64,000 nucleotides of DNA from positions 24,151 through 88,150 of the forward strand of contig BQWY01000002.1 in the NCBI GenBank assembly GCA_036984305.1. Reading direction: 5' to 3'. The position numbers were made by a program, and so were the translations under genes. This stretch comes from Nitrospira sp. (GTDB taxonomy: Bacteria; Nitrospirota; Nitrospiria; Nitrospirales; Nitrospiraceae). Below, one piece after another: positions 5,420 to 35,534 of this stretch (position 1 is the stretch's first letter; each line of letters begins with the position of its first letter). The notes under the pieces are model-generated. The model made no database searches, had not been told where the DNA came from, and saw only the letters and a list, made by a program, of their open reading frames with translations.

Positions 5420-6539
5420 GTTGCGCCAGATCCAATCCGAAAATTTCGGCCTGTTCGTCCACGCGCGGGGACAGTACAAGCCTCAGCCCCTTCAATGATA
5501 AGAAGCTCATGCCGCCCGCGAACGCAGCCACCACGACCGTCGAGACCAGTTGCGCAAAGAACTGATAGGGATATCCAAAGAACAACCCATCGCTCCCATC
5601 CGGATTGGCCTCGGTCGAGGCGAACAGACCGGTCGCCACCATCCCCCACGCTCCGCCCACCCCATGCATGCCGAATACGTCCAAGGAGTCATCATATCCA
5701 AGGATCAGCTTGACGTAATTGACCGCCATATAGCAGAGTCCCCCCGCTCCGGTTCCGATCACCACCGCAGACACCGGACTGACATAGCCCGCAGCAGGCG
5801 AGATGGCCACCAATCCGGCGACCAGCCCGCTGCCCATGCCCAGCGCCGTCGGCTTCTCCCGTTGCAACCATTCTGCCACCATCCAGGTCAGCGCAGCCGA
5901 CGCCGCCGACAGTTGGATGGCGACAAACGCGGTCGTAACGATGGTCATGGACACCGGACCGGGTCCAACCGTCATTCCAAACCAACCCGCCCACATCAAC
6001 CCGACTCCCAGAAAGGAGAAGGGCAAATGGCTGGGCAACATTTCATTGCGACCATACCCCCGTCGTGTTCCCAGCACGATGGCTGCCACCAACGCTGTCA
6101 CCCCGGCACTGAGATGGACGACTGCCCCTCCCGCATAATCCAGGCTGCCCAACTTCGTCAGCCATCCTCCCGCCCACAGCCACGATGCCACCGGGCCGTA
6201 GACCAGCAGAATCCAGAGCGCTCCAAACGCCAGGAAGAACGAAAATCGAACCCGCTCGACGATCCCGCCTGCAATCAAGCCGAGCGAGAGGGAGGCCATG
6301 AGGGCATGATGGACCGCGCGTAGCGACCCGGTTTCATCGCCTCCGTAGAGGATCCTGTCACCGACACACAGCCACACGAGGGAGGCGACTGCAAGTGCGC
6401 TAAAGGGCATGCCGATGGTATTCAGCACGTTTTTTCTCCGCACCATCCCTCCGTAAAAGAGCGCCACACCCACAAGGACCAGCATCAGTAGGCTGGTTGC
6501 GATGAGGAACCAGAGCGTTTCGCCACCTGGGTTCGTCAT
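5379..6539 (-). CDS. amt: ammonium transporter (Amt family, short form, no signal peptide)
   Basis: 386 aa with Amt signatures: LFYGGMVRRKNVLNT, DYAGGAVVHLSAG, DDSLDVFGMHGVGG. Confidence 0.92.
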   Translation of the reverse strand: MTNPGGETLWFLIATSLLMLVLVGVALFYGGMVRRKNVLNTIGMPFSALAVASLVWLCVGDRILYGGDETGSLRAVHHALMASLSLGLIAGGIVERVRFSFFLAFGALWILLVYGPVASWLWAGGWLTKLGSLDYAGGAVVHLSAGVTALVAAIVLGTRRGYGRNEMLPSHLPFSFLGVGLMWAGWFGMTVGPGPVSMTIVTTAFVAIQLSAASAALTWMVAEWLQREKPTALGMGSGLVAGLVAISPAAGYVSPVSAVVIGTGAGGLCYMAVNYVKLILGYDDSLDVFGMHGVGGAWGMVATGLFASTEANPDGSDGLFFGYPYQFFAQLVSTVVVAAFAGGMSFLSLKGLRLVLSPRVDEQAEIFGLDLAQHGEKGFVAHGHYS

Positions 6540-6742
6540 TCTCGTCCGCCGCTCAGCGAGACCAGATAGTCAGGTCCTGCTGCCCGTCGCAGCCACACTT
6601 CACCTGATCGGCTCAACCGGTCGATCCCGGCGAAGACTTGCGCCCAGCAAAGGCCGGAACGAAGCCATAGCCGATCCAATGTTTGCGCACCCTCTCGTTG
6701 AAGGATCTCCTTGACGATGGTTTCTGTCGATGCACCTGCCAT
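6536..6742 (-). CDS. small hypothetical protein (68 aa), possibly winged-helix-like
   Basis: ATG at 6742 is preceded by AGGAGGTGA. Its stop overlaps the amt start (ATGA). The upstream part of the 106-aa ORF overlaps a terminator-like hairpin and is probably not coding. Confidence 0.55.
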   Translation of the reverse strand: MAGASTETIVKEILQREGAQTLDRLWLRSGLCWAQVFAGIDRLSRSGEVWLRRAAGPDYLVSLSGGRE

Positions 6743-6779
6743 AGTCACCTCCTGTCCCTTGAGACCAATAAAAAAGCGC

Positions 6780-6841
6780 CGCGCGGTGAGTGGGAGTCCC
6801 GTCATAGGATTCTCCCAGTCCCCGCCGGCGCCTTTGCCGGC
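6780..6841 (-). terminator. terminator/attenuator-like structure between amt (7040..8359) and the small ORF
   Basis: Minus strand: a long GC-rich imperfect hairpin (GCGCCGGCGG...CCGCGCGGCGC, inner stem CUGGGAG/CUCCCA) followed directly by UUUUUU. It ends about 20 nt before the small ORF's SD. Confidence 0.45.
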
Positions 6842-7039
6842 TTCCTTCGACCGCATTGTCGACTATCTCGACCTGAGCCGCCCTGTGGCCGTGACGCTAC
6901 CGCTGTGGGTCTCCACGGGCCCGTGGGCGACATTCGCACAATTCAGTTGGCTGCACGCACAAGGACCGATGTGACGTGCACATGGGAACGCACATAGCAC
7001 GACGACCGCCCCGGATAGCCCCCCTCAACCGCATTCGCA

Positions 7040-10827: not shown

Positions 10828-12162
10828 TCACGCCATGCTGTGAATGGAAAATCCCTTCAGATACTCCTCCGGCTTGGCTGGATCGAACTCCTTCCCCATA
10901 ATGACGTGCTTCATCGTCGTGGCTTGATGCGTCTGATAGCCGAGTTCTTTTGCGACTCGATCGCAATCCGCCGCGCGATAGACTTGCTCGGCGACCTTCG
11001 CATAGTCCACATCGCCTTTGAGATGCCCCCATCGCTTCATTTGGGTCAAAATCCAAATCGCCATCGAATGCCAGGGGTAGGGATCGAAGTCGATTCGATT
11101 GGGCTCTTTTCGAATATGCCCCAGGCCGTCGGCGTAGGTACCGGTCAGTACTTGCTCCAGCACAGTCACCGGTTGATTCAGATAGTTCGTCGGCGCAATC
11201 GCCGCCGCGATTTCCTTTCGATGGGACGGATCGGACGCGTAGTGCGTGGCGTCCACGATGGCTCGAAACAAAGCGTGAAACGTGTTGGGGTACTTTGTCG
11301 CAAATTCCTTGGATACCGTGAAGGCGCAGCAGGGATGCCGGTCCCATATTTCTTTCGATAGCTTAAAGAGGAACCCGACATTCTCGTAGACCGCCCGTTG
11401 ATTGAAGGGATCGGGTGCCAAATAACCGTCCACATTGCCTGCCTTGAGATTCGCCACCATTTCAGGTGGGGGCACCACTCGTATCTGCACATCCTTGTCG
11501 GGGTGCACACCCCCTTCCGCCAAAAAATACCGTAGCAAATAGTTGTGCATGGAGTAGTCGAATGGCACACAGAATCGAAACCCCTTCATATCGGCGGCGG
11601 TCTTTACGTTCTTGTGTTTGATGTGCAGCGTGATGGCTTGGCCGTTGATGTTCTCAACGGCCGGCATGTAGAAGGGCTTGGGGACGGAACCGGCCCCCAG
11701 CGTGATCGCCAAGGGCATAGGGGTCAGCATATGGGCCGCGTCGACGTCCCCGTTAATCGCCCAATCCCGCACCATCGCCCACCCCGCTGCGCGCTTCACC
11801 GATGCATTCAAGCCGTATTTCTTATAGAACCCCAGGGGTTCGGCCATGATGATGGGGGTGGCGCATGTGATGGGGATGAACCCGATCGTCAGGTCTTTCT
11901 TTTCCGGCTTCCCTCCCGCATCCGCCGCAAAGGCCACCAACCGGCTCAGTGGAAAGACCTCCGCGATACACGCCGTCACTACGGCCCGGCCCATCAGTTC
12001 AAGTACTCGGCGCCGACCCGGATCCGCGGCAGCCAACACCGCCGAGGTCACAACGTGTTCGAGACCCGCCCGATAGCGCTCGTCTGTGGATTGAACCGAA
12101 TGAGATTGTGTCTCTCCTGCACCGTCATTCTCGTGTCTCAGGACGTCGTTCATGGGATCCAT
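10828..12162 (-). CDS. periplasmic substrate-binding protein, NrtA/CmpA/CynA family, Tat signal
   Basis: GRRRVLELMGRAVV twin-arginine signal. NrtA-like core (TIGFIPITCATP..., DGYLAPDPFNQRAV, HPCCAF). ATG 12162 is preceded by GAGGAG. Confidence 0.87.
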   Translation of the reverse strand: MDPMNDVLRHENDGAGETQSHSVQSTDERYRAGLEHVVTSAVLAAADPGRRRVLELMGRAVVTACIAEVFPLSRLVAFAADAGGKPEKKDLTIGFIPITCATPIIMAEPLGFYKKYGLNASVKRAAGWAMVRDWAINGDVDAAHMLTPMPLAITLGAGSVPKPFYMPAVENINGQAITLHIKHKNVKTAADMKGFRFCVPFDYSMHNYLLRYFLAEGGVHPDKDVQIRVVPPPEMVANLKAGNVDGYLAPDPFNQRAVYENVGFLFKLSKEIWDRHPCCAFTVSKEFATKYPNTFHALFRAIVDATHYASDPSHRKEIAAAIAPTNYLNQPVTVLEQVLTGTYADGLGHIRKEPNRIDFDPYPWHSMAIWILTQMKRWGHLKGDVDYAKVAEQVYRAADCDRVAKELGYQTHQATTMKHVIMGKEFDPAKPEEYLKGFSIHSMA

Positions 12163-12242
12163 TGTCGTTCTCCTCGCCACGTTTGAGCTGTTGGTTGCGT
12201 GGCTTCTGTTCAACCTCCATCCCGCACTTCCGCCACACCCAC

Positions 12243-12284
12243 AAAAAAAAAGCGTCCCTATTCCCTTCAGGGGAACAAGGACGC
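12243..12284 (-). terminator. intrinsic terminator A in the 5' leader of the ABC-cynS unit
   Basis: Minus strand: GCGUCCUUGUUCCC-CUGAA-GGGAAUAGGGACGC followed by U9. Confidence 0.8.
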
Positions 12285-12292
12285 CGTCGTCC
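12279..12292 (-). promoter_or_regulatory. GGAC-GACGGC-GUCC hexaloop hairpin overlapping the 5' arm of terminator A (candidate antiterminator P2)
   Basis: Read directly. Its 3' arm GUCC is part of the terminator A stem. Loop has G1 and G4. Confidence 0.55.
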
Positions 12293-12315
12293 AAAGGCGG
12301 AGGCTTCGTGCCCCC

Positions 12316-12335
12316 GTGAGACTTCAGTGTCTCAC
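12316..12335 (-). promoter_or_regulatory. GUGAGAC-ACUGAA-GUCUCAC hexaloop hairpin (candidate ANTAR P1)
   Basis: Perfect 7-bp stem. Hexaloop has A1 and G4. Lies 23 nt upstream of the P2 hairpin at 12279..12292. Confidence 0.55.
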
Positions 12336-12342
12336 ATCGCCC

Positions 12343-12387
12343 AAAACTAAAAAGGCGTCCGCCATTCTTACACGAATGACGGACGCC
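12343..12387 (-). terminator. intrinsic terminator D downstream of glnA
   Basis: Minus strand: GGCGUCCGUCAUUC-GUGUAA-GAAUGGCGGACGCC followed by UUUUUAGUUUU. About 125 nt after the glnA stop. Confidence 0.75.
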
Positions 12388-12396
12388 TTTGTCCGT
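12379..12396 (-). promoter_or_regulatory. ACGGAC-AAAGGC-GUCCGU hexaloop hairpin overlapping the 5' arm of terminator D
   Basis: 6-bp stem. Hexaloop has A1 and G4. Mutually exclusive with the terminator D stem. A TATAAC -10-like hexamer lies at 12405..12410. Confidence 0.55.
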
Positions 12397-12515
12397 GACC
12401 TATTGTTATAGTGTGCCGTTAGTCCGGCGTCGTTGCCAAACCACGACCTATGGTGGGGAGCTTACCACAGCTTCTCTCGACTCGTCAACCTACTTAATCT
12501 CCCCCGTAAACCCGC

Positions 12516-13925
12516 CTATACATCGTAGTACAGGTAGTATTCATACGGCACCGGTCGCAAGCGCATGGGATCGACTTCCTTGGCGCGCTTGTAGCCAATC
12601 CAGGCCTCGATCAGATCTTCGCTGAAAACACCGCCCTTGAGCAGGAATTGGTGATCCTTCTCCAAGTTGCGCAACGACTCTTCCAGGCTGCCCGGCATGG
12701 TCGGGATCTTCGCCGCTTCCTTGGCCTCGAGGTCGTAGAGGTCCTTTTCGGCCGGTTCTCCGGGATTGATCTTGTTTTCGATGCCGTCGAGACCCGCCAT
12801 CAACATGGCTGAAAACGCCAGGTACGGGTTGCAGGATGGATCCGGAAAGCGCACCTCGATGCGTTTGGCCTTCGGACTCGGCGAATACATCGGTATTCTG
12901 ATCCCTGCCGAGCGATTACGGCTGGAGTAGGCCAGCAACACCGGCGCCTCGAAGCCGGGCGTCAGGCGCTTATACGAGTTGGTCGAAGGATTGGTGAAGG
13001 CCGCCAACGCGGGAGCGTGCTTCAAGATCCCGCCGATATAATACAGGCAGAGTTGCGAGACGCCCGCATACTCCTTGCCCGCGAACAACGGCTTCCCGTC
13101 TTTCCAAATGCTCTGATGCGTGTGCATACCCGACCCATTGTCCCCGAATATGGGTTTCGGCATGAAGGTCACGGTCTTCCCATGCCGGCGGGCTACGTTC
13201 TTGACGATATACTTATACATCATCATTTTGTCGGCCGTGCGCAGCAGCGAATCGAACCGGATATCGATCTCCGCCTGACCCGCCGTGGCCACCTCGTGGT
13301 GGTGCTTCTCGATCTGGATTCCGGCCTTTTCCATTTCCAAAATCATCTCGCTGCGGATGTCCTGCTGCGTATCGGTCGGGGCCACCGGGAAATAGCCTTC
13401 CTTATGGCGGATCTTCCCGCCCAAATTTGGGCCTTCCTGCCCGCTGTTCCAGATGCCCTCCTCCGAATCGACAAAGTAGTATCCGCTATGGCTGGTTTGA
13501 TCGTAGCGGGCCTGGTCGAAGATGAAGAACTCGGCCTCGGGGCCCCAATACGAGATGTCTCCGATCTTGGTGCTTTGCAAATGTTTCTCGGCCTTTTGGG
13601 CCACGTACCGCGGATCGCGATCGTACATTTCCCTCGTGATGGGATCCAACACGTTGCCGACCATGCTCAAGGTCGGGACCGTGCAGAACGGATCCAAACA
13701 GGCGGTCGCCGGATCGGGAATCAGCAACATGTCGCTGTTGTTGATAGCCTTCCAGCCGCGGATGGACGATCCGTCCAGGCCGGAGCCGTCTTTGAACAGC
13801 CCTTCGGTCAATTCCCCGACGGGAATGCTGAAATGCTGCCACGTCCCAATCAAATCGATGAACTTGAGATCGACGACTTGTACCTTGTTCTTCTTCGCGA
13901 GCTCCATCACTTCCTTGACCGTCAT
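12516..13925 (-). CDS. glnA: glutamine synthetase type I
   Basis: 469 aa from ATG 13925 (AAGGAGG upstream). GSI motifs FDGSSI-like (LDGSSIRGW), [32 protein letters not shown]. Confidence 0.95.
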
Positions 13926-18495: not shown

Positions 18496-20280
18496 CTAGC
18501 GTTCCTCCCGGTATCGGTTCGTGATCGGCATTCGCCGATCCTTACCTAATCCGCGGTGAGTAATCTTGATTCCTACCGGTGCCTGCCGGCGCTTGTACTC
18601 GCTCCGGTCGACTTGCGCGACAACATGCTCCACCGTGTCACGCGCAAATCCCATTCCGACCATCTCATCGACCGAACAATCGTCTTCTACATAGGCCTTG
18701 AGAATTGGGTCCAAGACCGCATAGGGCGGCAAGGAATCTTCATCGCGTTGGTCTGGACGAAGCTCGGCGGTCGGCGGACGATCCAGGATCCGTTTGGGAA
18801 TCACGGGATTCGCTTCGTGTTCGTTCCGCATCCGGGCCAGCTCGTACACGAGAGTTTTCGGTACGTCCTTGATGACGGCAAATCCACCTGCCATGTCGCC
18901 GTATAACGTCGCGTAGCCGACGCTCATCTCGCTCTTGTTGCCGGTGGTCAACACGAGATGTCCGAACTTGTTGGAGAAGGCCATCAGGAGATTGCCTCGG
19001 ATCCGCGCCTGCAGATTTTCTTCCGTCACATCGGATTGACACCCCTCGAAGGATGACGCCAGTGACTTCCGGTACGCCTCGAAGACCTGGGTGATCGGGA
19101 GCGAGCGGCATTCGATCCCAAGCCGGCGCGCCAGCGCGGCAACGTCCTCGTGGCTCTCCTCGGAGGTATAGGGAGACGGCATAAACAAAGCCAGTACGTT
19201 ACCTGGACCGAGCGCGTCCGCGGCAATGGTCGCCGTGAGCGCGGAATCCACCCCGCCGCTCACCCCAATGACCACACGCCGAAAGCCGTTTTTCCTCACG
19301 TAGTCACGGACTCCAACCACGAGGGCACGATAGACCTCGGCCAAAGGGGTCAATAGTGGAGTCTGGGCCGCCACGAGCCTCGGCCGCTTTACCGACGCCG
19401 GCTGCGTGCTCGGCAACAGCAGCCTTTCCACGCCCACATGCCGGCGTCCCATCGCGGCCTTGCGCGATCCCTGTCCGATGCGGCCGCGTCCGACAGGTTG
19501 CGCGTTCACATCAGCGAGGAGGAAATCCTCCTCGAATGCTTTTGCTCGCGCGATCACCTCGCCCGTCTGGTCGAGGATCACACTGTTTCCATCGAAGACG
19601 AGCTCGTCTTGTGCCCCGACGATGTTCGTGTATGTCACGATGACGTGATGATCCCGAGCACGCGTGGCCAACATCTGCTCACGCTGGCGGCTCTTGCCCA
19701 TGTGGAACGGGGACGCGTTAATATTTACGATGATTTCGGCCCCGGCTGCCGCCTGGGCTTTCGTGGGCCCTTCCGGGAGCCAGATATCCTCGCAGATATT
19801 CACGCCCAGACAGGTCCCATTGAGCATCAAAACCGGAACCCGGCTGCCGGGCATGAAGTAGCGGTTTTCATCGAACACCCCGTAGTTCGGCAGGTGTTGC
19901 TTGGCGTACACGGTGACCAATTGCCCATTGACGATCACAGCCGCGGCGTTATACAGCGCGCCTCGCCCTGACGGTAGCGAGACAGCTCGCCGAGACGACG
20001 CCGAAGGCTCCAGTTCCTGTCCCACATAGCCAACCACGACGGCGAGATCGCGGCATTGCGGTATCAGTTTCTCGAGTGCCAGTCGCGTGTCCTCGATGAA
20101 ACGCGGTTTGAGTAACAGATCTTCCGGCGGATATCCCGTCAATCCCAACTCGGGAAAGGCCACCAGATCGGCATTGGCTTTTCGTGCTTCCTTGATCCAT
20201 CGTTCAATTGCAGCGAGGTTACCCGTGAGATCTCCCACGGTCGGATTCATCTGCGCCATCGCGATCCGGAAGAGCCGCAT
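18496..20280 (-). CDS. nadE: glutamine-dependent NAD+ synthetase (nitrilase/CN-hydrolase domain plus NAD synthetase domain)
   Basis: ATG 20280 is preceded by AAGGAG. N-terminal CN-hydrolase (FPELGLTGYPPEDL, ICEDIW). C-terminal SGGVDS PP-loop. The upstream part of the 666-aa ORF covers the leader and terminator and is not coding. Confidence 0.9.
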   Translation of the reverse strand: MRLFRIAMAQMNPTVGDLTGNLAAIERWIKEARKANADLVAFPELGLTGYPPEDLLLKPRFIEDTRLALEKLIPQCRDLAVVVGYVGQELEPSASSRRAVSLPSGRGALYNAAAVIVNGQLVTVYAKQHLPNYGVFDENRYFMPGSRVPVLMLNGTCLGVNICEDIWLPEGPTKAQAAAGAEIIVNINASPFHMGKSRQREQMLATRARDHHVIVTYTNIVGAQDELVFDGNSVILDQTGEVIARAKAFEEDFLLADVNAQPVGRGRIGQGSRKAAMGRRHVGVERLLLPSTQPASVKRPRLVAAQTPLLTPLAEVYRALVVGVRDYVRKNGFRRVVIGVSGGVDSALTATIAADALGPGNVLALFMPSPYTSEESHEDVAALARRLGIECRSLPITQVFEAYRKSLASSFEGCQSDVTEENLQARIRGNLLMAFSNKFGHLVLTTGNKSEMSVGYATLYGDMAGGFAVIKDVPKTLVYELARMRNEHEANPVIPKRILDRPPTAELRPDQRDEDSLPPYAVLDPILKAYVEDDCSVDEMVGMGFARDTVEHVVAQVDRSEYKRRQAPVGIKITHRGLGKDRRMPITNRYREER

Positions 20281-20352
20281 GGTACTCCTTCGAAACTCCC
20301 GTGACCGACTCCATTTCCTGAGCGACCGGACGTGTCGCCGTCCTGCACGAAC

Positions 20353-20399
20353 AAAAAAAAACGTCCTTGATTCCCAGACGATTGGGAACCCAAGGACGT
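20353..20399 (-). terminator. intrinsic terminator B in the nadE leader, downstream of ureD
   Basis: Minus strand: ACGUCCUUGGGUUCCCA-AUCGUC-UGGGAAUCAAGGACGU followed by U9-10. Confidence 0.85.
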
Positions 20400-20407
20400 C
20401 ATTGTCC
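20394..20407 (-). promoter_or_regulatory. GGAC-AAUGAC-GUCC hexaloop hairpin overlapping the 5' arm of terminator B (candidate P2)
   Basis: Read directly. Loop has A1 and G4. Its 3' arm is the first part of the terminator B stem. Confidence 0.6.
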
Positions 20408-20435
20408 GTGGTTATGTCGTACCGACACCCTGATC

Positions 20436-20451
20436 GAGACGCCTTTGTCCC
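20436..20451 (-). promoter_or_regulatory. GGGAC-AAAGGC-GUCUC hexaloop hairpin (candidate P1)
   Basis: 5-bp stem including one G-U pair. Loop has A1 and G4. Lies 28 nt upstream of P2 and 15-20 nt downstream of the TATAAC -10. Confidence 0.55.
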
Positions 20452-20466
20452 AGGACGGTAGCAGGC

Positions 20467-20496
20467 GTTATAGCAGCCTCCCTCGCTCATTGTCAA
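20467..20496 (-). promoter_or_regulatory. sigma70-type promoter for the nadE unit
   Basis: Minus strand: TTGACA-18 nt-TATAAC. Located between the ureD stop (20560) and the leader hairpins. Confidence 0.6.
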
Positions 20497-22887: not shown

Positions 22888-24615
22888 CTAGAAGAGGAAA
22901 TAGCGTTGCGCCATTGGCAGCACCTTGAGCGGATCGCAACTGAGGAGTTGGCCGTCGGCCCGCACTTCGTAGGTCTCGGGATCAACCTCCAAATGCGGCA
23001 TCGCGCTGTTGAGCTTCATGTCTCGTTTCGTAATCGTCCGACACTGCCCCACCGTCGCGATGCGCTTCTGCAATTCCAGTTGGGCGGGCACCCCCCGCTG
23101 CACACCGGCCGCCGAGAGGAAGGTCAGACTGGTCGAGTACGGCGCGCGCCCGAACGATCCAAACATAGGACGGGTGTACACGGGCTGCGGGGTGGGGATC
23201 GACGCGTTTGGATCTCCCATGGCGGCGGACATGGGAAATCCCCCCTTGATGACGATCTCAGGCTTGACGCCGAAGAACGCGGGTCTCCAGAGCACCAAGT
23301 CGGCCAACTTGCCGACCTCGAGCGAGCCGACTTCATGAGCGATGCCATGTGCGATGGCCGGGTTGATCGTATACTTTGCTATGTAGCGGCGTGCCCGAAA
23401 ATTGTCTTGCCGTTCTTCCCCGCCTACCATGTCGTTTTGAGCGAGATGGCCACGCTGGATCTTCATCTTGTGCGCCGTCTGCCACGTGCGGATGATGACC
23501 TCCCCCACACGTCCCATGGCTTGTGAATCGGACGACATCATGCTGATGGCACCCATGTCGTGCAGGATATCCTCCGCGGCAATGGTCTCACGACGTATCC
23601 TCGATTCGGCAAATGCCACGTCCTCCGGCACGCGGGGGTTTAAGTGATGACACACCATCAACATGTCGAGATGTTCATCCATCGTATTGACGGTGAACGG
23701 CATCGTGGGATTGGTCGACGACGGCAGCACGTTGGCCTCGCCGCAGATTTTGATGATGTCCGGCGCATGGCCCCCGCCGGCTCCTTCGGTGTGGAATGAA
23801 TGGATGGTGCGACCCTTGAAGGCCTTGATGGTGTCCTCGAGGAATCCCGCCTCGTTGATGGTATCGGTGTGGATCGCCACTTGCACGTCGTACTCCTCCG
23901 CGACGTCGAGACAGGTCGAAATCGCCGCGGGCGTCGTGCCCCAATCCTCGTGCAGTTTCAACCCGATGGCTCCGGCCTCGACCTGCTCCCGCAAGCCCTC
24001 CGGTCGAGCGGCATTGCCCTTCCCAAAGAATCCGAGATTAATGGGAAATCCGTCCGCGGCCTCCAGCATGCGTCCGATGTTCCATGCGCCTGGGGTACAC
24101 GTCGTCGCGTTGGTCCCGGTCGCGGGACCGGTCCCCCCTCCGAGCAACGTCGTGAGGCCAGCGGCAACAGCCTCGTACACGATCTGGGGACAGATGAAAT
24201 GGATATGACTGTCGATTCCGCCGGCTGTGACGATCCGCCCTTCGGCGGAGAGGGCTTCAGTGCCAGGACCGATCTCCATTCCCGGCGTCACCCCATCCAT
24301 AAGGTCCGGATTGCCGGCTTTGCCGATCCCGACAATGCGACCGTCACGAATACCGATGTCCGCCTTGACCACGCCCCAATAGTCGAGGATCACCGCGTTG
24401 GTGATGACCAGATCGAGTGCCCCCTGCGCACGCGTCGCCGTCGGGGACTGTCCCATCCCATCCCGGATGACCTTCCCTCCGCCGAACTTGGCTTCCTCAC
24501 CGGGAACGGTGAGATCGCGCATGACTTCGATGATCAAATCCGTGTCGGCGAGGCGTATGCGGTCTCCGGTCGTCGGACCATAGAGATCGACGTATTGACG
24601 ACGAGACAAGTTCAT
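22888..24615 (-). CDS. ureC: urease alpha subunit
   Basis: 575 aa. [42 protein letters not shown] and other canonical urease alpha motifs. Confidence 0.97.
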
Positions 24616-30172: not shown

Positions 30173-31543
30173 CTACTTCTTTTTGTAGGTACCCTGATGC
30201 GCAACCCAATCGCATCCCTTGTCTGGATTGGTATACTCACTCCAGGGCTCCGGTTTGACGAGTCCCTTCGAGCGCCAGATCGTCTTGAACTGGCCATCCT
30301 TGCGGATCTCTCCAATCAACACCGGTTTGTGGGTGTGATGATTCGCCGAATCCATCATGATCTCGCCGCCTGGGGCCAAGAACTTGCTGCCATAGACCGC
30401 CTTGCGCACCTTGTCCACCGCGGTCGAGCCAGCCTTCTCCACGGCTTGTTTCCACACATGCACCCCGAAGTAGGCGGCTTCGATCGGATCGTCCGTGACG
30501 CGATTGCCACCATCCGGCAGCTTGTTCTTTTCGCAATACGCCTTGAAGTTTGACACGAATTTTTTATTCTGCGGTGTATCGACGCTCTGGAAATAGTTCC
30601 ATGCCGCGAGGTGCCCCACCAACGGAGTCGTATCCATCCCACGCAACTCGTCTTCGGCGACGCTGAACGCCATGATCGGCGCATCCTCAGACCGAAGTCC
30701 TTGATTGGCGAATTCCTTGTAGAACGGAACATTGCTGTCTCCATTGATGGTGCTGATGACGCAGGCGCCGCCTCCGGCGGAAAATTTCTTAATCTTTCCG
30801 ACGATCGTTTGATAGTCCTGGTGATGAAAGGGCGTATACTCCTCCATGATATTGGCGGCTGCCACCTTCTTCGCCAACAACATGGCGCGAAGAATCTTGT
30901 TCGTCGTGCGTGGATACACGTAGTCAGTGCCCAACAGATAGAACTTCTTGTACTCGCCACCCTCCTTGCTCATGAGATACTCGACTGCCGGCACGGCCTG
31001 TTGATTGACCGCCGCCCCCGTATAGAAGACGTTGTGCGAGCATTCTTCGCCCTCGTATTGGACGGGGTAGAACAGCAAGCCGTTGTTCTTTTCGAATACG
31101 GGAAGCACTGATTTCCGGCTGACGGACGTCCAACACCCGAATACGACCGCCACCTTGTCCTGCAGGAGCAGACCCTTCGCCTTCTCCGCAAACAGATCCC
31201 AGTTCGACGCGGGATCCACCACCACCGGTTCGATCGGTCGTCCCATGACCCCGCCCTTGGCGTTGATCTCTTCGACAGCCATCATGACCACATCCCGCAG
31301 GGATACCTCGCTGATCGCCATCGTGCCGCTCAGCGAATGCAAGATACCGATCTTGATCGGTTCCTTCCCCGCTGCATATGACAATGCCCAATGTCCGAGG
31401 TTCCCCAGGAGCGCAGCCACACCGATCCCGGCCGCCGTTCGCCCCCCCTTGGACAAAAGTTCCCGACGGGAGAGGTTTTCAGGCCCGGCCTCGTCCGCAA
31501 GAGGCTTCTGTGTGTCGGTCGTCGTTTCGTTAATAGGTTTCAT
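30173..31543 (-). CDS. urtA: urea-binding periplasmic protein UrtA (Tat signal)
   Basis: 456 aa. SRRELLSKGGRTAAGIGVAAL signal. LivK/amide-binding fold sequence. AAGGAG before the ATG. Confidence 0.9.
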   Translation of the reverse strand: MKPINETTTDTQKPLADEAGPENLSRRELLSKGGRTAAGIGVAALLGNLGHWALSYAAGKEPIKIGILHSLSGTMAISEVSLRDVVMMAVEEINAKGGVMGRPIEPVVVDPASNWDLFAEKAKGLLLQDKVAVVFGCWTSVSRKSVLPVFEKNNGLLFYPVQYEGEECSHNVFYTGAAVNQQAVPAVEYLMSKEGGEYKKFYLLGTDYVYPRTTNKILRAMLLAKKVAAANIMEEYTPFHHQDYQTIVGKIKKFSAGGGACVISTINGDSNVPFYKEFANQGLRSEDAPIMAFSVAEDELRGMDTTPLVGHLAAWNYFQSVDTPQNKKFVSNFKAYCEKNKLPDGGNRVTDDPIEAAYFGVHVWKQAVEKAGSTAVDKVRKAVYGSKFLAPGGEIMMDSANHHTHKPVLIGEIRKDGQFKTIWRSKGLVKPEPWSEYTNPDKGCDWVAHQGTYKKK

Positions 31544-31568: not shown

Positions 31569-32951
31569 TTAGAAGTTGTACCACCAGGACAGCATGAAGT
31601 TGTCGCCTTGATTCTGGTCTCCAGTTGTCCAGTGCGTCATGAGGTGATTCCACTCCAGTCCGGTATAGAAGTCTCCCCACAGATGTCGGACCGCTGTCAG
31701 ATAGAACCGGTGGTTCAGCAGATATTGGGTATCGGGCCCGGCGGTGGTCCCGGCAAGGTCGGAGTTAAACGGATTGTCGAACCCGTACCCACCGACGAAG
31801 GTATACTTATGAGAGTGGGCATAGTTTAATTCCGCCCATCCCACCATCGTCCGAATCACCTTACCGGTGCCAAGGTTCCGTTCCTGCCCGTAACGAAACC
31901 ATTCCACGCCTAATCCCTGCCCGTAGGCAATTTCACCCGTGAACTTCAGGCGGCTCGTAATGGGCACGACTAACTCGCCGCCGACCACGAATGATTGGAT
32001 ATCCTGTCCAGACGGAATCCCACCGGTTGCCGCGGTGGGAGCGGATCGGTAGTACCGATAGGCCGCATTGGCGGCGATCATGAAACCCTGCTGTTTCCCG
32101 GTGCCGGTGTAGGCCCAGCGCGTTCCCACATACGGCATTTGCACAGGATCGTTGAAGGCGTTCTCCGAACAGGCAAACGCCCCGGTTGGATTCGTACAGC
32201 TCACCGGAGGCGATCCGCCGACGGCGCTTCCCGTGAAGGGCCGCCGCTGTGTCTGCGGCTGGATGGCAGAAAGACCGCGCTCAAACCGCATAACCGTCAA
32301 CAAACCATCCACATGGTCGCTGAATCGATGTTTTAACGTGATTTGCGGCAAGCGCTGCCAGAGATTGCCGTTGTACCCCATGATCGAGAAATCGATGAGA
32401 TTGGGGTGCAATCCCATGATCGGCGTCCAATCTTGCCCGACCGTCAACGTGGATCGCCCATTGTTGGGCGAGTACTTGACGTTGGCCAAACGCAAGCGCG
32501 GGAGAATGTTGCCTGCATTGTCCGTTTGCCCGTAAAAATCTGTCTCAACCACACCGGACAGCGAATGTTTGCCATCCGTTCGATCAGCGCGCAATCCGAA
32601 TACGCTGTATCGCGGATTGAGCGTGCTGCTGCTGTTCGAACTCGTTCCGGCCGCCGTGGCATACCCGTTGAACTGCCCCGGGTCCAGTGGGTTATTATTT
32701 CTCGTACTGTAAATGGCGTCCAATTCGACCCGCCCGTAGGGACTGATGCTGCCTTTTCCGTCCGTGGGAAACGCCGGTGCAATGCATCCTGCGCAAAGAA
32801 TCGGGGGCGGCGTCTCTTCTTCGCGGATGAGACGTCCCGCTCCTGCCGCCTCTTCCGCACTCTGCTCTTCGGCATAGGCCCCGGGCACCGCCACCAGCGT
32901 GGCAATGATCAGCACCCCCAACCACTTTCGATACATACCGTCCGCATTCAT
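31569..32951 (-). CDS. outer-membrane porin, likely urea/short-chain-amide selective (FmdC-like by position)
   Basis: Signal peptide (LGVLIIATLVAVPGAYA). Beta-rich sequence ending in the ...WWYNF C-terminal OMP signature. First gene of the urt unit. AGGAGG lies 9 nt before ATG 32951. Confidence 0.75.
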   Translation of the reverse strand: MNADGMYRKWLGVLIIATLVAVPGAYAEEQSAEEAAGAGRLIREEETPPPILCAGCIAPAFPTDGKGSISPYGRVELDAIYSTRNNNPLDPGQFNGYATAAGTSSNSSSTLNPRYSVFGLRADRTDGKHSLSGVVETDFYGQTDNAGNILPRLRLANVKYSPNNGRSTLTVGQDWTPIMGLHPNLIDFSIMGYNGNLWQRLPQITLKHRFSDHVDGLLTVMRFERGLSAIQPQTQRRPFTGSAVGGSPPVSCTNPTGAFACSENAFNDPVQMPYVGTRWAYTGTGKQQGFMIAANAAYRYYRSAPTAATGGIPSGQDIQSFVVGGELVVPITSRLKFTGEIAYGQGLGVEWFRYGQERNLGTGKVIRTMVGWAELNYAHSHKYTFVGGYGFDNPFNSDLAGTTAGPDTQYLLNHRFYLTAVRHLWGDFYTGLEWNHLMTHWTTGDQNQGDNFMLSWWYNF

Positions 32952-33006
32952 CCCTTCGCCCTCCTGGTTGAGAGACCGTCTAGTCTTGACCGCAGGGCGT
33001 CGGAAC

Positions 33007-33047
33007 AAAAAAAAACGCCCTTCCGGCCCATTTGGACCAAAAGGACG
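33007..33047 (-). terminator. intrinsic terminator C (T2) in the porin-urt leader
   Basis: Minus strand: CGUCCUUUUGGUCC-AAAU-GGGCCGGAAGGGCG (14 bp including G-U pairs) followed by U9. Lies about 55 nt upstream of the porin start codon. Confidence 0.8.
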
Positions 33048-33056
33048 CCGTTGTCC
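33043..33056 (-). promoter_or_regulatory. GGAC-AACGGC-GUCC hexaloop hairpin overlapping the 5' arm of terminator C (candidate P2)
   Basis: Read directly. Loop has A1 and G4. Its 3' arm is shared with the terminator stem. Confidence 0.6.
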
Positions 33057-33070
33057 TCATGTGAACTTGG

Positions 33071-33104
33071 AAAAAAATCGTCGTGGAACCACGCTGTTCC
33101 ACGA
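33071..33104 (-). promoter_or_regulatory. UCGUGGAAC-AGCGUG-GUUCCACGA hexaloop hairpin followed by CGAU7 (candidate P1, itself terminator-like)
   Basis: Perfect 9-bp stem. Hexaloop has A1 and G4. A U7 tract follows 3 nt after the stem, so it may act as a first attenuator. Confidence 0.55.
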
Positions 33105-33128
33105 ACTGACACACACAAAAACGGCCCT

Positions 33129-33158
33129 CTTGTATCGGATCGCTCTCTTGGTTGTCAA
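33129..33158 (-). promoter_or_regulatory. sigma70-like promoter for the porin-urt-ure unit
   Basis: Minus strand: TTGACA-17/18 nt-(A)TACAAG, about 25 nt upstream of the first leader hairpin. Confidence 0.4.
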
Positions 33159-33251
33159 TGGGTTTCTTCTTATCTGCACTCCTGTGGTACACTGCGGCAA
33201 ACCACGAAGTGCCCAGCCGTCCTCATGATGTTTGGGTACCCCCCAGCACAC

Positions 33252-34256
33252 ATGCACATTTTTACGTCCATTTTTCCGTGGCAGCTGGTCACGGGCTCTC
33301 TCCTCTGCCTAATCACGTTTCACGGTTGTGGACTGCTTTCCTCTTCCCGAACAGGGCTCTACGACGGACCTCGGGGACGCGTCTATCTCGAAACCGTCCC
33401 TGAGCGAGGCGCAAGCGGCGGCGTTGGGGTGCGGACTGGCTTGGATGCGTCACATCCCGCTCTCATCGAACCTGATGTGATCGCATCGCTTCTGAGAGGT
33501 CTTCAGATCAAAGAAACCTCAAGTTTCGGTGCGTTGTTGGACACGTCCGGAACGCCACGGCCGATCTTTACCAAGGAAGAGGCCGCTTTTTTGGCTCCGC
33601 TCCTGAGCTCGGCCTTGGCGAAGGCCTCTCCTTCCCAATTTGTCGTGTTTGAACTCCAGCAGCCACCGACCGGTTATCGCGCAAAGCGGGTTCCTGGAGC
33701 CGGAGCCGGCTCGTCCATTCCCAGTCCCGAACAGGTGAGCACAGAGGAAACCTCGGGGGCGCTGTACGTCTTTGGCCGCTCGTTGCACGCCGTGTTGACG
33801 AAATTCCGTTACGTGCCCGACCCACCCGACACGATCCGGATGGCCAATCGTCTCCTGCCGGATCCCACCGGTCTGGCCGAGTACAAGGTGTCCTTCTCTC
33901 CGGCGGCCGCTCTTCGACCAGATACGTATGCTCGCGAGGCACTGCCGGTTTCAGACGAACTACCCTCGTTTGTCATCGACTATCAAGCACTCCCCAGTTT
34001 GGTCGTAACGCCCGCCCCTGCGCCCGGGGCGTCGCAGGCATCCGGGACCACGTCCGCACCTGCGCCGTCGCGGCCGGCAAGCGCAGAGACCCCACCCCAG
34101 AATCAAATTCGTGAATTGAAAGATCTTGTTGTCGAGAAGGATCTGGAATTGGAACGATTGCGGAAAGAACTTGAACAGCTGAAACGGCGGCCGCCGACAC
34201 CGGGGCAGGCCCCTTCGAAAGTACCACCTGGCGGAAAAGTTACTCCCGCGCCGTAG
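33252..34256 (+). CDS. hypothetical secreted protein/lipoprotein with a C-terminal coiled coil and Pro-rich tail
   Basis: In-frame part of the 637-aa ORF that does not overlap the porin gene. Hydrophobic N-terminus with ...LLCLITFHGC. C-terminus IRELKDLVVEKDLELERLRKELEQLKRRPPTPGQAP. Start is uncertain (ATG 33225, 33228 or 33252) and has no clear SD. Confidence 0.5.
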   Translation: MHIFTSIFPWQLVTGSLLCLITFHGCGLLSSSRTGLYDGPRGRVYLETVPERGASGGVGVRTGLDASHPALIEPDVIASLLRGLQIKETSSFGALLDTSGTPRPIFTKEEAAFLAPLLSSALAKASPSQFVVFELQQPPTGYRAKRVPGAGAGSSIPSPEQVSTEETSGALYVFGRSLHAVLTKFRYVPDPPDTIRMANRLLPDPTGLAEYKVSFSPAAALRPDTYAREALPVSDELPSFVIDYQALPSLVVTPAPAPGASQASGTTSAPAPSRPASAETPPQNQIRELKDLVVEKDLELERLRKELEQLKRRPPTPGQAPSKVPPGGKVTPAP

Positions 34257-34265
34257 CACCCGCCG

Positions 34266-35534
34266 CTAGGATGCCGTCCCTGCCCCGCCAGCCTGCCCGT
34301 CGATCTCTCCGGCCAGTAAAATGGCCTCAGCAACCTCACGCATCGATTTACGCATCGCCATGCTTTGCCGTTGAATGAGGCGGAACGCCTCCTCCTCCGA
34401 GAGTCGCCGTGTCCGCATAATATAGCCCTTCGCGCGCTCCACCACTTTGCGCACCGCGAGTGCCTCCTGCATCTCGAAGGACTTGTCGATCAGCGTCGTG
34501 TGCTCGATCGCGATGGCCGCTTGATTGGCGATAGCCTGAAGGATCTTCGTTTCCTCGTTGGTGAACTCATGGGGAACGGAGGTGTAGGTGTTGATGACGC
34601 CGACGACCTTTTCTCGGACCAGCATCGGAACGGACAACAGGGAATAGAGTCCTTCGCGCCGTGCCAGATCTGGATACATGAAATCGTGATCTGTTGTGAC
34701 GTCCGGCACCATGATGGGGCGCCGTTCCTGCACGGCGCGACCACTGATGCTCTGGCCGACCCGCAGGTTTGGCTTGCGCCGATAGGCTTCGCTGAGGCTT
34801 TGGGTTGCCACGATTCGCAGTTCGCCCTTGTCGTGATCCAGCACCATGATCGAGCAGATCTTTGAGTTCATGAGTTGCGCAACCATCGCAACGATCAGTT
34901 GGAAGACGTCCTCAATCAATCGATTGGAGGTCACCGTTTCGGAAACCTGTGACAACGTCTCGACCTGAAGAGCCTTGCGCCGCATCTCTTCATAGAGTCG
35001 GGCATTCTCGATGGCTCCGCCCACCTGATTGGCAATCGTGGTCAGCAGGGCCAGTTCGTCTGTACCGTACCGGCGCGGTCGCTTGTGCTGCACATTGATG
35101 ACCCCGACCACTTCCTTCTTGGTCAAGATGGGCACGGACACAAACGCCTGATAGCGGTCTTCCGGCAAGTTGTGAAAAAACTTGAAGCGTGGATCGTCAC
35201 TGGCGCTGCTGGGAATGACAACGCTGGTCCGCTCTCGGGCGACCCACCCTGTGATACCTTCACCCAATCCGATCGTAATTCTGCCAATCAGGCGAGGATG
35301 CGGATTTTTCGATGCCCGCAGAACCAACTCATGCTTGTCCGCGGACAAGAGATAGAGCAGGCAAGCGTCGCATTTAGTCACCTCGACCACCACATCCACG
35401 ATATGGCGGAGGACCGCCGCGAGATCAAGGGTGTTGCTGATGGAGTCGCTGATACGATGTAGCACCTCGACTTCGCGCGTTTTGGTGCGCAAAGCGTGTT
35501 GGATTCGCTGCGTCGAATTGGAACTACGTTTCAT
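34266..35534 (-). CDS. GAF-GAF-ANTAR RNA-binding antitermination regulator
   Basis: Two GAF-like blocks (LEVLHRISDSISNTLDL...GITGWV; LSQVSETVTSNRL...). C-terminal ANTAR-like helix bundle (ALAVRKVVERAKGYIMRTRRLSEEEAFRLIQRQSMAMRKSMREVAEAIL). ATG 35534 lies 8 nt after the aroB stop. Confidence 0.8.
   Translation of the reverse strand: MKRSSNSTQRIQHALRTKTREVEVLHRISDSISNTLDLAAVLRHIVDVVVEVTKCDACLLYLLSADKHELVLRASKNPHPRLIGRITIGLGEGITGWVARERTSVVIPSSASDDPRFKFFHNLPEDRYQAFVSVPILTKKEVVGVINVQHKRPRRYGTDELALLTTIANQVGGAIENARLYEEMRRKALQVETLSQVSETVTSNRLIEDVFQLIVAMVAQLMNSKICSIMVLDHDKGELRIVATQSLSEAYRRKPNLRVGQSISGRAVQERRPIMVPDVTTDHDFMYPDLARREGLYSLLSVPMLVREKVVGVINTYTSVPHEFTNEETKILQAIANQAAIAIEHTTLIDKSFEMQEALAVRKVVERAKGYIMRTRRLSEEEAFRLIQRQSMAMRKSMREVAEAILLAGEIDGQAGGAGTAS

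Follow-up and report, generated by a model that had tools for sequence, protein, structure and literature searches.

Described ANTAR leaders and the nrt leader of Nitrospira

Proteins with an ANTAR domain target leader RNAs built from two hairpins, each with a stem of at least 3 bp and a hexaloop that carries A at position 1 and G at position 4 (A1/G4); a variable linker separates the hairpins, and the second one (P2) overlaps a terminator (PMC3369931). Here, we describe a candidate leader of this class in a 64,000-nt stretch of Nitrospira sp. DNA (contig BQWY01000002.1, positions 24,151 to 88,150 of the forward strand; hereafter the window, with positions counted from its first letter). It occupies the gap between glnA and the gene for an NrtA/CynA-type binding protein, read on the minus strand. 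Judging from sequence, predicted folding and comparison with relatives, we consider it probable that this gap forms the ~290-nt 5' leader of nrtABC-cynS(-amt1), with a promoter of its own and two serial ANTAR-type antitermination units (unit D followed by unit A, equivalent to units 1 and 2 of the relatives), and that a GAF-GAF-ANTAR protein is its likeliest regulator. The start site, the binding of a protein, the acting ANTAR protein and its signal we infer. An earlier note on this DNA had proposed two serial, conditional terminators of the ANTAR type before the transporter-cyanase operon, a proposal now supported by the architecture of the locus, its conservation, covariation of the hairpins, likeness to the targets of NasT and GnfR, and an ANTAR gene in the window.

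NalA, the leader of Pseudomonas nirBD that Rfam lists as P11, is bound by NasT through its two hexaloops (PMC11387622, PMC10783516). Like unit D, it has two A1/G4 hexaloop hairpins, the second of which (GGAC-AAAGGC-GUCC) overlaps a GGCGUCC...GGACGCC terminator, and the P11 consensus shares with unit D the sequence GGACAAAGGCGUCC, the GGACGCC terminator arm and the CAACGA first loop. Both NalA and the nrt leader stand before genes for the assimilation of oxidised nitrogen. NalA consists of one unit with nirBD-nasC downstream, whereas two units in series precede an NrtA-type ABC transporter and cyanase here. Transcription of NalA is NtrC-dependent, whereas the promoter of the nrt leader looks sigma-70-type (TTGACG-N15-TGG-TAAGCT). 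Among the window's open reading frames (ORFs) that we scanned there were no NasS/NasT-type genes; the ANTAR protein of the window is of the GAF-GAF-ANTAR type.

In Geobacter sulfurreducens, GnfK/GnfR governs antitermination in the leaders of nitrogen-fixation genes, glnK and amtB, and the predicted GnfR site reads CAGGCAANGGCGCC (PMC2995071). This motif lies upstream of terminators and overlaps them, and its AANGGC loop and GGC/GCC closing pairs recur in the consensus of the first hairpin (P1) in our leaders; nitrogen genes, including amt and PII genes, follow in both cases. GnfR differs in being a phosphorylated REC-ANTAR response regulator with nif targets and RpoN-dependent promoters. The EutV/EutW system of the Enterococcus faecalis eut leaders (PMC3369931, PMC8934654) shares with our proposal the dimeric ANTAR protein, a recruiting P1, the competition between P2 and the terminator, and the presence of several attenuators per locus; it differs in serving ethanolamine utilisation, in using a response regulator and in having linkers of 5-12 nt. 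NasR of Klebsiella oxytoca, which acts on the nasF leader, resembles the present case as a one-component sensor-ANTAR protein with a hexaloop hairpin before a terminator in a nitrate/nitrite-assimilation leader (PMC3369931, PMC7496416). Its sensor is a NIT domain for nitrate and nitrite rather than GAF-GAF, and nasF has a single unit.

For Desulfotomaculum, Table S2 of PMC3369931 lists predicted ANTAR sites that occur as pairs 100-200 nt apart before amt-PII, nif and urea transporter-urease genes, with further sites before glutamine synthetase and NAD+ synthetase. Tandem layout and regulon content are as in our Nitrospira window; the differences are that Desulfotomaculum belongs to the Firmicutes, that its regulators are REC-ANTAR proteins and that the sites are predictions only. 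The mechanism and the ANTAR control of nitrogen genes are already established, and the tandem layout and the regulon content, being listed in this table, also have a precedent in kind. The tables of PMC3369931 hold no entry for Nitrospira, and we found no link between ANTAR regulation and Nitrospira in the searchable literature. Nitrite oxidisers are globally important, and the control of cyanate, urea, ammonium and nitrite assimilation in Nitrospira appears not to have been worked out at this level. The leader described here would offer a model of a regulon controlled after initiation, in which the RNA sites are defined, a regulator is proposed and the predictions are clear, and its conserved tandem arrangement makes it a case for studying the contribution of serial ANTAR units.

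Two terminators overlap hexaloop hairpins

Unit D opens with the putative recruiting hairpin P1 (12420..12443; minus strand, as for all leader positions below), in which UGGUUUGGC and GCCGGACUA form a 9-bp stem around the A1/G4 hexaloop AACGAC (−10.8 kcal/mol). A 23-nt linker leads to the putative antiterminator P2 (12379..12396), ACGGAC-AAAGGC-GUCCGU, with a 6-bp stem, an A1/G4 hexaloop and a folding energy of −8.1 kcal/mol. The loop and 3' arm of P2 supply 12 of the 17 nt in the 5' arm of terminator D (12343..12390), whose 17-pair stem (12390-12351) runs from GGCGUCCG... to ...CGGACGCC, contains 9 G-C pairs (−30.2 kcal/mol) and is followed by UUUUUAGUUUU (12353-12343).

The earlier note had located P2, the terminator and a TATAAC hexamer (12410-12405) correctly. 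It saw no convincing P1 for this unit; the hairpin at 12443-12420 fills that place, and its homologue in relatives is the covarying (N)AGGC-AAYGGC-GCCU(N) hairpin. The elements that the note had placed within 12243-12410 are all there, and the feature itself is larger, taking in P1 and a promoter at 12488-12459. Another hairpin, GCCG-GACUAA-CGGC (12427-12414), was considered as P1 of unit D and dropped for the homologous, covarying GGC-AACGAC-GCC hairpin.

Unit A begins with P1' (12315..12336), (U)GUGAGAC-ACUGAA-GUCUCAC(G), which has a stem of 7-8 bp, an A1/G4 hexaloop and −11.0 kcal/mol. Its linker to P2' measures about 22-23 nt and includes an extra hairpin predicted by folding, GGGGGC-ACGAA-GCCUCC (12299..12315), with an analogous insert in L026 only; as a conjecture, this hairpin would bring P1' and P2' nearer to each other. 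P2' (12279..12292) reads GGAC-GACGGC-GUCC (G1/G4), a 4-bp stem with a 6-nt loop and −6.0 kcal/mol, and overlaps 7 of the 15 nt in the 5' arm of terminator A (12243..12285). The latter combines a 15-pair stem (12285-12251; 8 G-C pairs, −25.6 kcal/mol) with U9 (12251-12243), and 80 nt separate it from the ATG at 12162. All of these parts lie where they had been reported, namely GUGAGAC-ACUGAA-GUCUCAC at 12335-12316, the 23-nt linker at 12315-12293, GGAC-GACGGC-GUCC at 12292-12279, the U9 tract and the 80-nt spacer.

Both units have two neighbouring stem-loops of at least 3 bp with hexaloops, and the A1/G4 rule holds for AACGAC and AAAGGC of unit D and for ACUGAA of unit A; GACGGC of P2' departs from it at position 1. 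In both, the second hairpin overlaps the 5' arm of the terminator, so that the two structures are mutually exclusive, and both terminators show the G+C-rich hairpin and subsequent U tract of intrinsic terminators. Because P2 and P2' are far weaker than the terminators, the default state would be termination, and a factor would have to hold P2 against the terminator. A leader peptide was considered and rejected: the sole ATG with any context (12336) has TGA immediately after it.

A terminator scan called both terminators, with five sites in the region against 0.6 expected. RNAfold z-scores were −5.8 and −5.4 for the two units; the whole 361-nt gap gave z = −5.7, and its structure of lowest energy includes both terminators together with the GUGAGAC-ACUGAA-GUCUCAC hairpin. 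We also searched the window with a descriptor that combines a hexaloop hairpin with G4, a linker of 2-35 nt and a second hexaloop hairpin (A or G at position 1, and G4) that contributes its loop or 3' arm to a terminator. The descriptor matched five times on the minus strand and not once on the plus strand, whereas 60 dinucleotide shuffles averaged 0.7 matches on both strands together and never exceeded 3.

A covariance model (R1), built from unit 1 of 23 relatives with the window excluded and with P1 and P2 as its structure, was run unfiltered over the whole window. Its top match was unit D (54.3 bits, E 1e-9), and matches two to five were the remaining four descriptor sites, in the leaders of nadE (21.2 bits), the urea genes (19.4 bits) and amt2 (13.8 bits), and in unit A (13.5 bits). 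All five sites lie on the coding strand upstream of nitrogen genes. With the lowest score of the five, unit A is the most divergent unit. Rfam at gathering thresholds returned no match in the region and only one in the window, to 5_ureB_sRNA, which lies elsewhere.

Conservation and covariation in relatives

The 14-mer GGAC-AAnGGC-GUCC, each copy with a T run 41-47 nt later, is present twice upstream of nrtA in 20 related loci. Across 45 Nitrospirales loci, two hairpin-plus-terminator units lie within 450 nt of nrtA in 20, one in 16 and none in 9; several of these 9 have a unit further upstream, ahead of an intervening gene. The units of the window are 102 nt apart with a single conserved promoter upstream, and this tandem layout is kept in the 20 loci.

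In the relatives, the P1 hairpin of unit 1 stands 16-27 nt upstream of P2 and shows compensatory changes in six of its seven homologous pairs, for example from GGC/GCC to AAC/GUU in L024. Its alignment cells are paired in 88.6% of cases, compared with 32-40% when the partners are slid. In P1' of unit 2, compensatory changes affect five of six pairs, and pairing holds in 97.8% of cells; taken together, the slid-partner controls for P1 and P1' gave 30-45%. The terminators vary in the same manner, with compensatory changes in 5 pairs of terminator D and in 6 of 12 pairs of terminator A. A lower extension of P1 (GAGC/GCUC), with merely 73.5% of cells paired, was kept out of the model, and an alignment of the whole of unit 2 with MAFFT and RNAalifold misaligned P1' and was replaced by fixed-register slices. 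The linker of unit 2 measures 4-8 nt in most relatives and 22-28 nt, with the extra hairpin inserted, in the window and L026.

The 14-mer is invariant including its loop, as a palindromic DNA operator (GGAC-N6-GTCC) would be, and a position upstream of nitrogen genes would suit either such an operator or a metabolite riboswitch. We give these two readings next to no credence. The 14-mer lies 60-170 nt downstream of the predicted promoter and always overlaps a terminator arm, its partner hairpins covary as RNA, and the identical motif of NalA is bound as RNA by NasT (PMC10783516); as for a riboswitch, no Rfam riboswitch family matches.

Just 5' of P2, the unit-1 linker of most relatives carries a conserved block, ACAUAAGGCA(A/C)AC, for which the nadE leader of the window has ACGACAUAACCAC. 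The linker of unit D in the window (12419-12397) differs in sequence from this block and can form a small CUAU/AUAG hairpin. A second flavour of unit occurs upstream of nrtA in other Nitrospirales (L018, L031, L035-L042 and L067), with P1 CCUGAC-AACGNC-GUCAGG, a linker of 6-8 nt and P2 CUGGC-AAnGGC-GCCAG.

Predicted promoter and entry of transcription

The predicted sigma-70-type promoter of the nrt leader (12459..12488) consists of the −35 element TTGACG (12488-12483), an 18-nt spacer with an extended −10 TG (12467-12466) and the −10 element TAAGCT (12464-12459). About 25 relatives share its pattern, TTGACG-N15-TGn-TA(C/T)AAG, and have the −10 element 58-70 nt ahead of P2; transcription most likely starts near 12454-12451. 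A generic sigma-70 scan of 11900-12800 returned no match; the promoter falls below the stringency of that scan and was found solely by comparing relatives. The TATAAC at 12405-12410, which the earlier note had listed as a −10-like hexamer with a poor −35, has no −35 element and lies in the P1-P2 linker, where relatives carry ACAUAAGGCAAC; the conserved promoter replaces it. Because this promoter lies directly 3' of the glnA stop, both units belong to one 5' leader. The scan detected no promoter between the two units and none between terminator A and the ATG, where TTGAAC-17-CAGCTC is poor, and reading the gap and the sequence downstream of terminator A by eye gave no match to a sigma-54 promoter (TGGCAC-N5-TTGC).

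Directly 3' of the glnA stop, a GGGGAG...CUCCCC hairpin (12455-12505) encloses the predicted promoter. It lacks a U tract, and a role in stabilising read-through RNA from glnA at its 3' end is conceivable.

No terminator separates the glnA stop from unit D, so terminator D, presumably a regulated one, probably ends glnA transcripts as well, and read-through from glnA can also enter the nrt leader. The same absence of an own glnA terminator after the stop (12516) would fit a scheme in which both hairpins are unconditional glnA terminators and the operon has a separate promoter, since terminator D must then end glnA transcripts too. This scheme, which had been named earlier as the outcome that would undo the proposal, we hold to be extremely improbable. 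The conserved promoter lies upstream of unit D and not downstream, the scan found no promoter-like site from 12243 to the ATG, and plain terminators would have no use for conserved, covarying P1 hairpins with A1/G4 loops; moreover, the same module stands before nadE, the urea genes and amt2, with no upstream gene that needs termination.

A promoter of its own, a strong terminator ~100 nt downstream and the likeness to P11, which accumulates as a small RNA (sRNA), would also suit a leader that is mainly an NalA/P11-like sRNA gene, whose products of ~100 or 210 nt act in trans or titrate the ANTAR protein, as EutX and Rli55 do. We regard this as very unlikely to be the main role. In all relatives the RNA lies directly upstream of the operon and on the same strand; cis antitermination is sufficient and is the proven role of NalA (PMC10783516), and a trans role would supplement the cis mechanism, not supplant it.

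Proposed mechanism

In the antitermination mechanism that we favour, transcription would start at the conserved promoter just after the glnA stop, possibly joined by read-through from glnA. In each unit, the P1 hexaloop hairpin would recruit a dimeric ANTAR-domain protein, which would then capture the hexaloop of the weak P2 (about −6 to −8 kcal/mol). As the loop and 3' arm of P2 form the 5' arm of the far stronger intrinsic terminator (−26 to −30 kcal/mol), the terminators would win without active protein and leave short RNAs of ~100 or 210 nt. With active protein, P2 would be held, nucleation of the terminator would be blocked and the polymerase would read on. Read-through of serial units would be the product of two probabilities, giving a tighter off state and a steeper response; tandem riboswitches likewise have a lower basal level and a sharper response. 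The likeliest regulator would be the GAF-GAF-ANTAR protein (34266-35534), probably responding to nitrogen status and probably also controlling the leaders of the urea genes, of nadE-amt-glnB-glnD-glnA and of amt2 and the octahaem cytochrome.

Several observations weigh against this reading. Linkers in eut leaders measure 5-12 nt, and EutV activity is lost with a linker of 3 nt or 14 nt or with a 20-nt extension (PMC3369931, PMC8934654), whereas those of unit D (23 nt) and unit A (about 22-23 nt) are not short. Internal hairpins could, as a conjecture, shorten the effective distance; the search model of PMC3369931 permitted a variable linker, and long linkers also occur in NalA/P11 and in the nadE leader of the window. 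The match of unit D to the P11 model (RF00625; 27.5 bits, E 1e-4, model positions 1-139) stays far below the gathering score of 70 and denotes resemblance, not membership. Covariation is uninformative for P2 because its stems never vary, the stem sequence of unit 1 being invariant in 25 relatives. Finally, other ANTAR proteins of the genome, encoded beyond the window, could be the true regulators.

The remaining points concern unit A. Taken alone, it scores 13.5 bits with the unit-1 model (E 0.31), which is not significant. The P1' loop of the relatives is mostly GCUGNA, with G1 and a retained G4, unlike the AAYGGC loop of unit 1; in three relatives it is a pentaloop. The P2' loop of the window, GACGGC, has G1, and RNAfold closes it as GGACG-ACGG-CGUCC, with 5 bp and a tetraloop. 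These features would accord with a leader whose sole classical ANTAR switch is unit D; unit A would answer to something else, whether a further ANTAR protein or a different RNA-binding factor, or be a leaky constitutive terminator, and the leader would integrate two inputs or damp expression. We consider this unlikely. The loops of unit A had been described as A1/G4 in P1' and G1/G4 in P2', and both descriptions hold for the window, but 18 of 20 relatives carry the canonical AAnGGC in a GGAC-AAnGGC-GUCC hairpin at the position of P2', as in unit 1. Furthermore, P1' keeps G4 and covaries, and a terminator of −25.6 kcal/mol with U9 and no promoter downstream requires some antitermination for any expression. 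One hexaloop is sufficient for ANTAR binding (PMC8934654). With both units under ANTAR control, the distinct, conserved P1' loop could still mean that the units differ in affinity or that a second input is read.

Sister leaders and reach of the proposed regulon

The three further sites found with the descriptor and R1 precede other nitrogen genes on the minus strand. In the urea-uptake leader (33004..33158; R1 E 0.018), a TTGACA-N18-TACAAG promoter motif is followed by P1 UCGUGGAAC-AGCGUG-GUUCCACGA, P2 GAGGAC-AACGGC-GUCCUU and a terminator with U9. The nadE leader (20350..20496; E 0.0077) combines the promoter motif TTGACA-N15-TGC-TATAAC, P1 UGGGAC-AAAGGC-GUCUCG, P2 GGAC-AAUGAC-GUCC and a terminator with U9, and precedes nadE, amt, glnB, glnD and glnA. 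The promoter motifs of these two leaders are of the kind seen in the nrt leader. The amt2 attenuator (6765..6862; E 0.26) has P1 UCGAC-AAUGCG-GUCGA, a 5-nt linker, P2 GCCGGC-AAAGGC-GCCGGC and a terminator; a 68-aa ORF, amt2 and the genes for a Rieske protein, cytochrome b and an octahaem cytochrome follow it. Together with the two nrt units, these three leaders look like one ANTAR regulon.

The presence of the amt2 attenuator narrows what the nrt leader controls. The earlier note had both units gating the transporter, cyanase, two amt genes and the octahaem module. Because amt2 and the octahaem module sit behind the attenuator at 6862-6765, units D and A would directly gate just nrtABC-cynS-amt1, and the second amt with the Rieske, cytochrome b and octahaem genes falls outside their direct reach.

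The 68-aa ORF (6536-6741, minus strand) lies between the terminator of the amt2 leader and amt2; it has a good ribosome-binding site and no Pfam match, and its stop overlaps the amt2 start. A 106-aa ORF listed at 6536-6856, which crosses the attenuator, is probably not real. In N. moscoviensis, a further unit (L021, 9740-9850) after cynS and before the next gene is equivalent to this attenuator. The first gene after the urea leader (31569-32951, minus strand) encodes ~460 aa without a Pfam match and lies directly upstream of urtA (30173-31543).

A candidate GAF-GAF-ANTAR regulator

The genome that carries these leaders also encodes an ANTAR protein. Among the ~40 ORFs first scanned, there was no ANTAR gene near the glnA-nrtA gap; tblastn with ANTAR query sequences gave a lead to one at 34266..35534 on the minus strand, and Pfam confirmed it (ANTAR, E 3.3e-19, with two GAF domains). 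The protein comprises 422 aa from a conserved start. Its homologues across Nitrospira are 78-89% identical and carry generic names only. The gene comes after aroB, at the head of the nadE-amt-glnB-glnD-glnA cluster, in N. bockiana and another genome; in L035, it stands directly upstream of a two-unit nrtA leader; and in the window, the minus-strand transcription unit that comes next begins with the urea leader (33158-33004). The start of the gene falls inside the annotated span of an aroB-like ORF, and a plus-strand ORF without a Pfam match (about 33200-34256) converges on it, with a Pfam-less gene in the same position in L083 and L084.

The first GAF domain is closest to that of PtsP/EI-Ntr (3ci6, E 5.9e-22). 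The GAF domain of EI-Ntr senses glutamine and 2-oxoglutarate, and by analogy we speculate that the GAF-GAF-ANTAR protein may sense one of these metabolites. A broader, tentative possibility is that this protein is a one-component, metabolite-sensing, RNA-binding master regulator of nitrogen assimilation in Nitrospira, taking the part that NtrC or NtcA play elsewhere and acting through at least five leaders, namely those of the urea-uptake genes, of nadE-amt-glnB-glnD-glnA and of amt2 with the octahaem nitrite reductase, and the two nrt units. The two nrt units would then be non-redundant, setting two thresholds or reading two inputs as an AND gate, with glutamine and 2-oxoglutarate as possible signals. 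If this is true, targets and a signal would for the first time be assigned to a GAF-ANTAR protein. According to Ramesh et al. 2012 (PMC3369931), the class had no characterised member at that time, and in a 2025 review it appears only as a domain architecture; the leaders described here are predicted natural targets for this protein class.

Gene cluster and further observations

The window holds a Nitrospira-type nitrogen-assimilation gene cluster that reads on the minus strand in the order urease accessory genes, nadE (18496-20280), amt, glnB, glnD and glnA (stop codon 12518-12516). According to Pfam, the genes 3' of the glnA-nrtA gap encode the NrtA/CynA-type binding protein, permease, ATPase, cyanase, an ammonium transporter (amt), the 68-aa ORF product, a second amt product, and the Rieske, cytochrome b and octahaem cytochrome proteins. 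The first gene of the nrtABC-cynS-amt1 unit, together with the 80-nt spacer and its GAGGAG, spans 10828..12242 on the minus strand (Pfam NMT1_2, E 1.6e-84), and the best matches of its product are in Nitrospira genomes, N. moscoviensis among them, at 76-86% identity. ORFs listed over the leader, such as a TTG-start extension of nrtA to 12294, are not real.

Antisense to the minus-strand urease genes, the plus strand of the window has a strong match at 24174-24469 to the Rfam family 5_ureB_sRNA (RF02514; 86.8 bits, E 4e-21). Conserved coding sequence of urease may be all that this match reflects.

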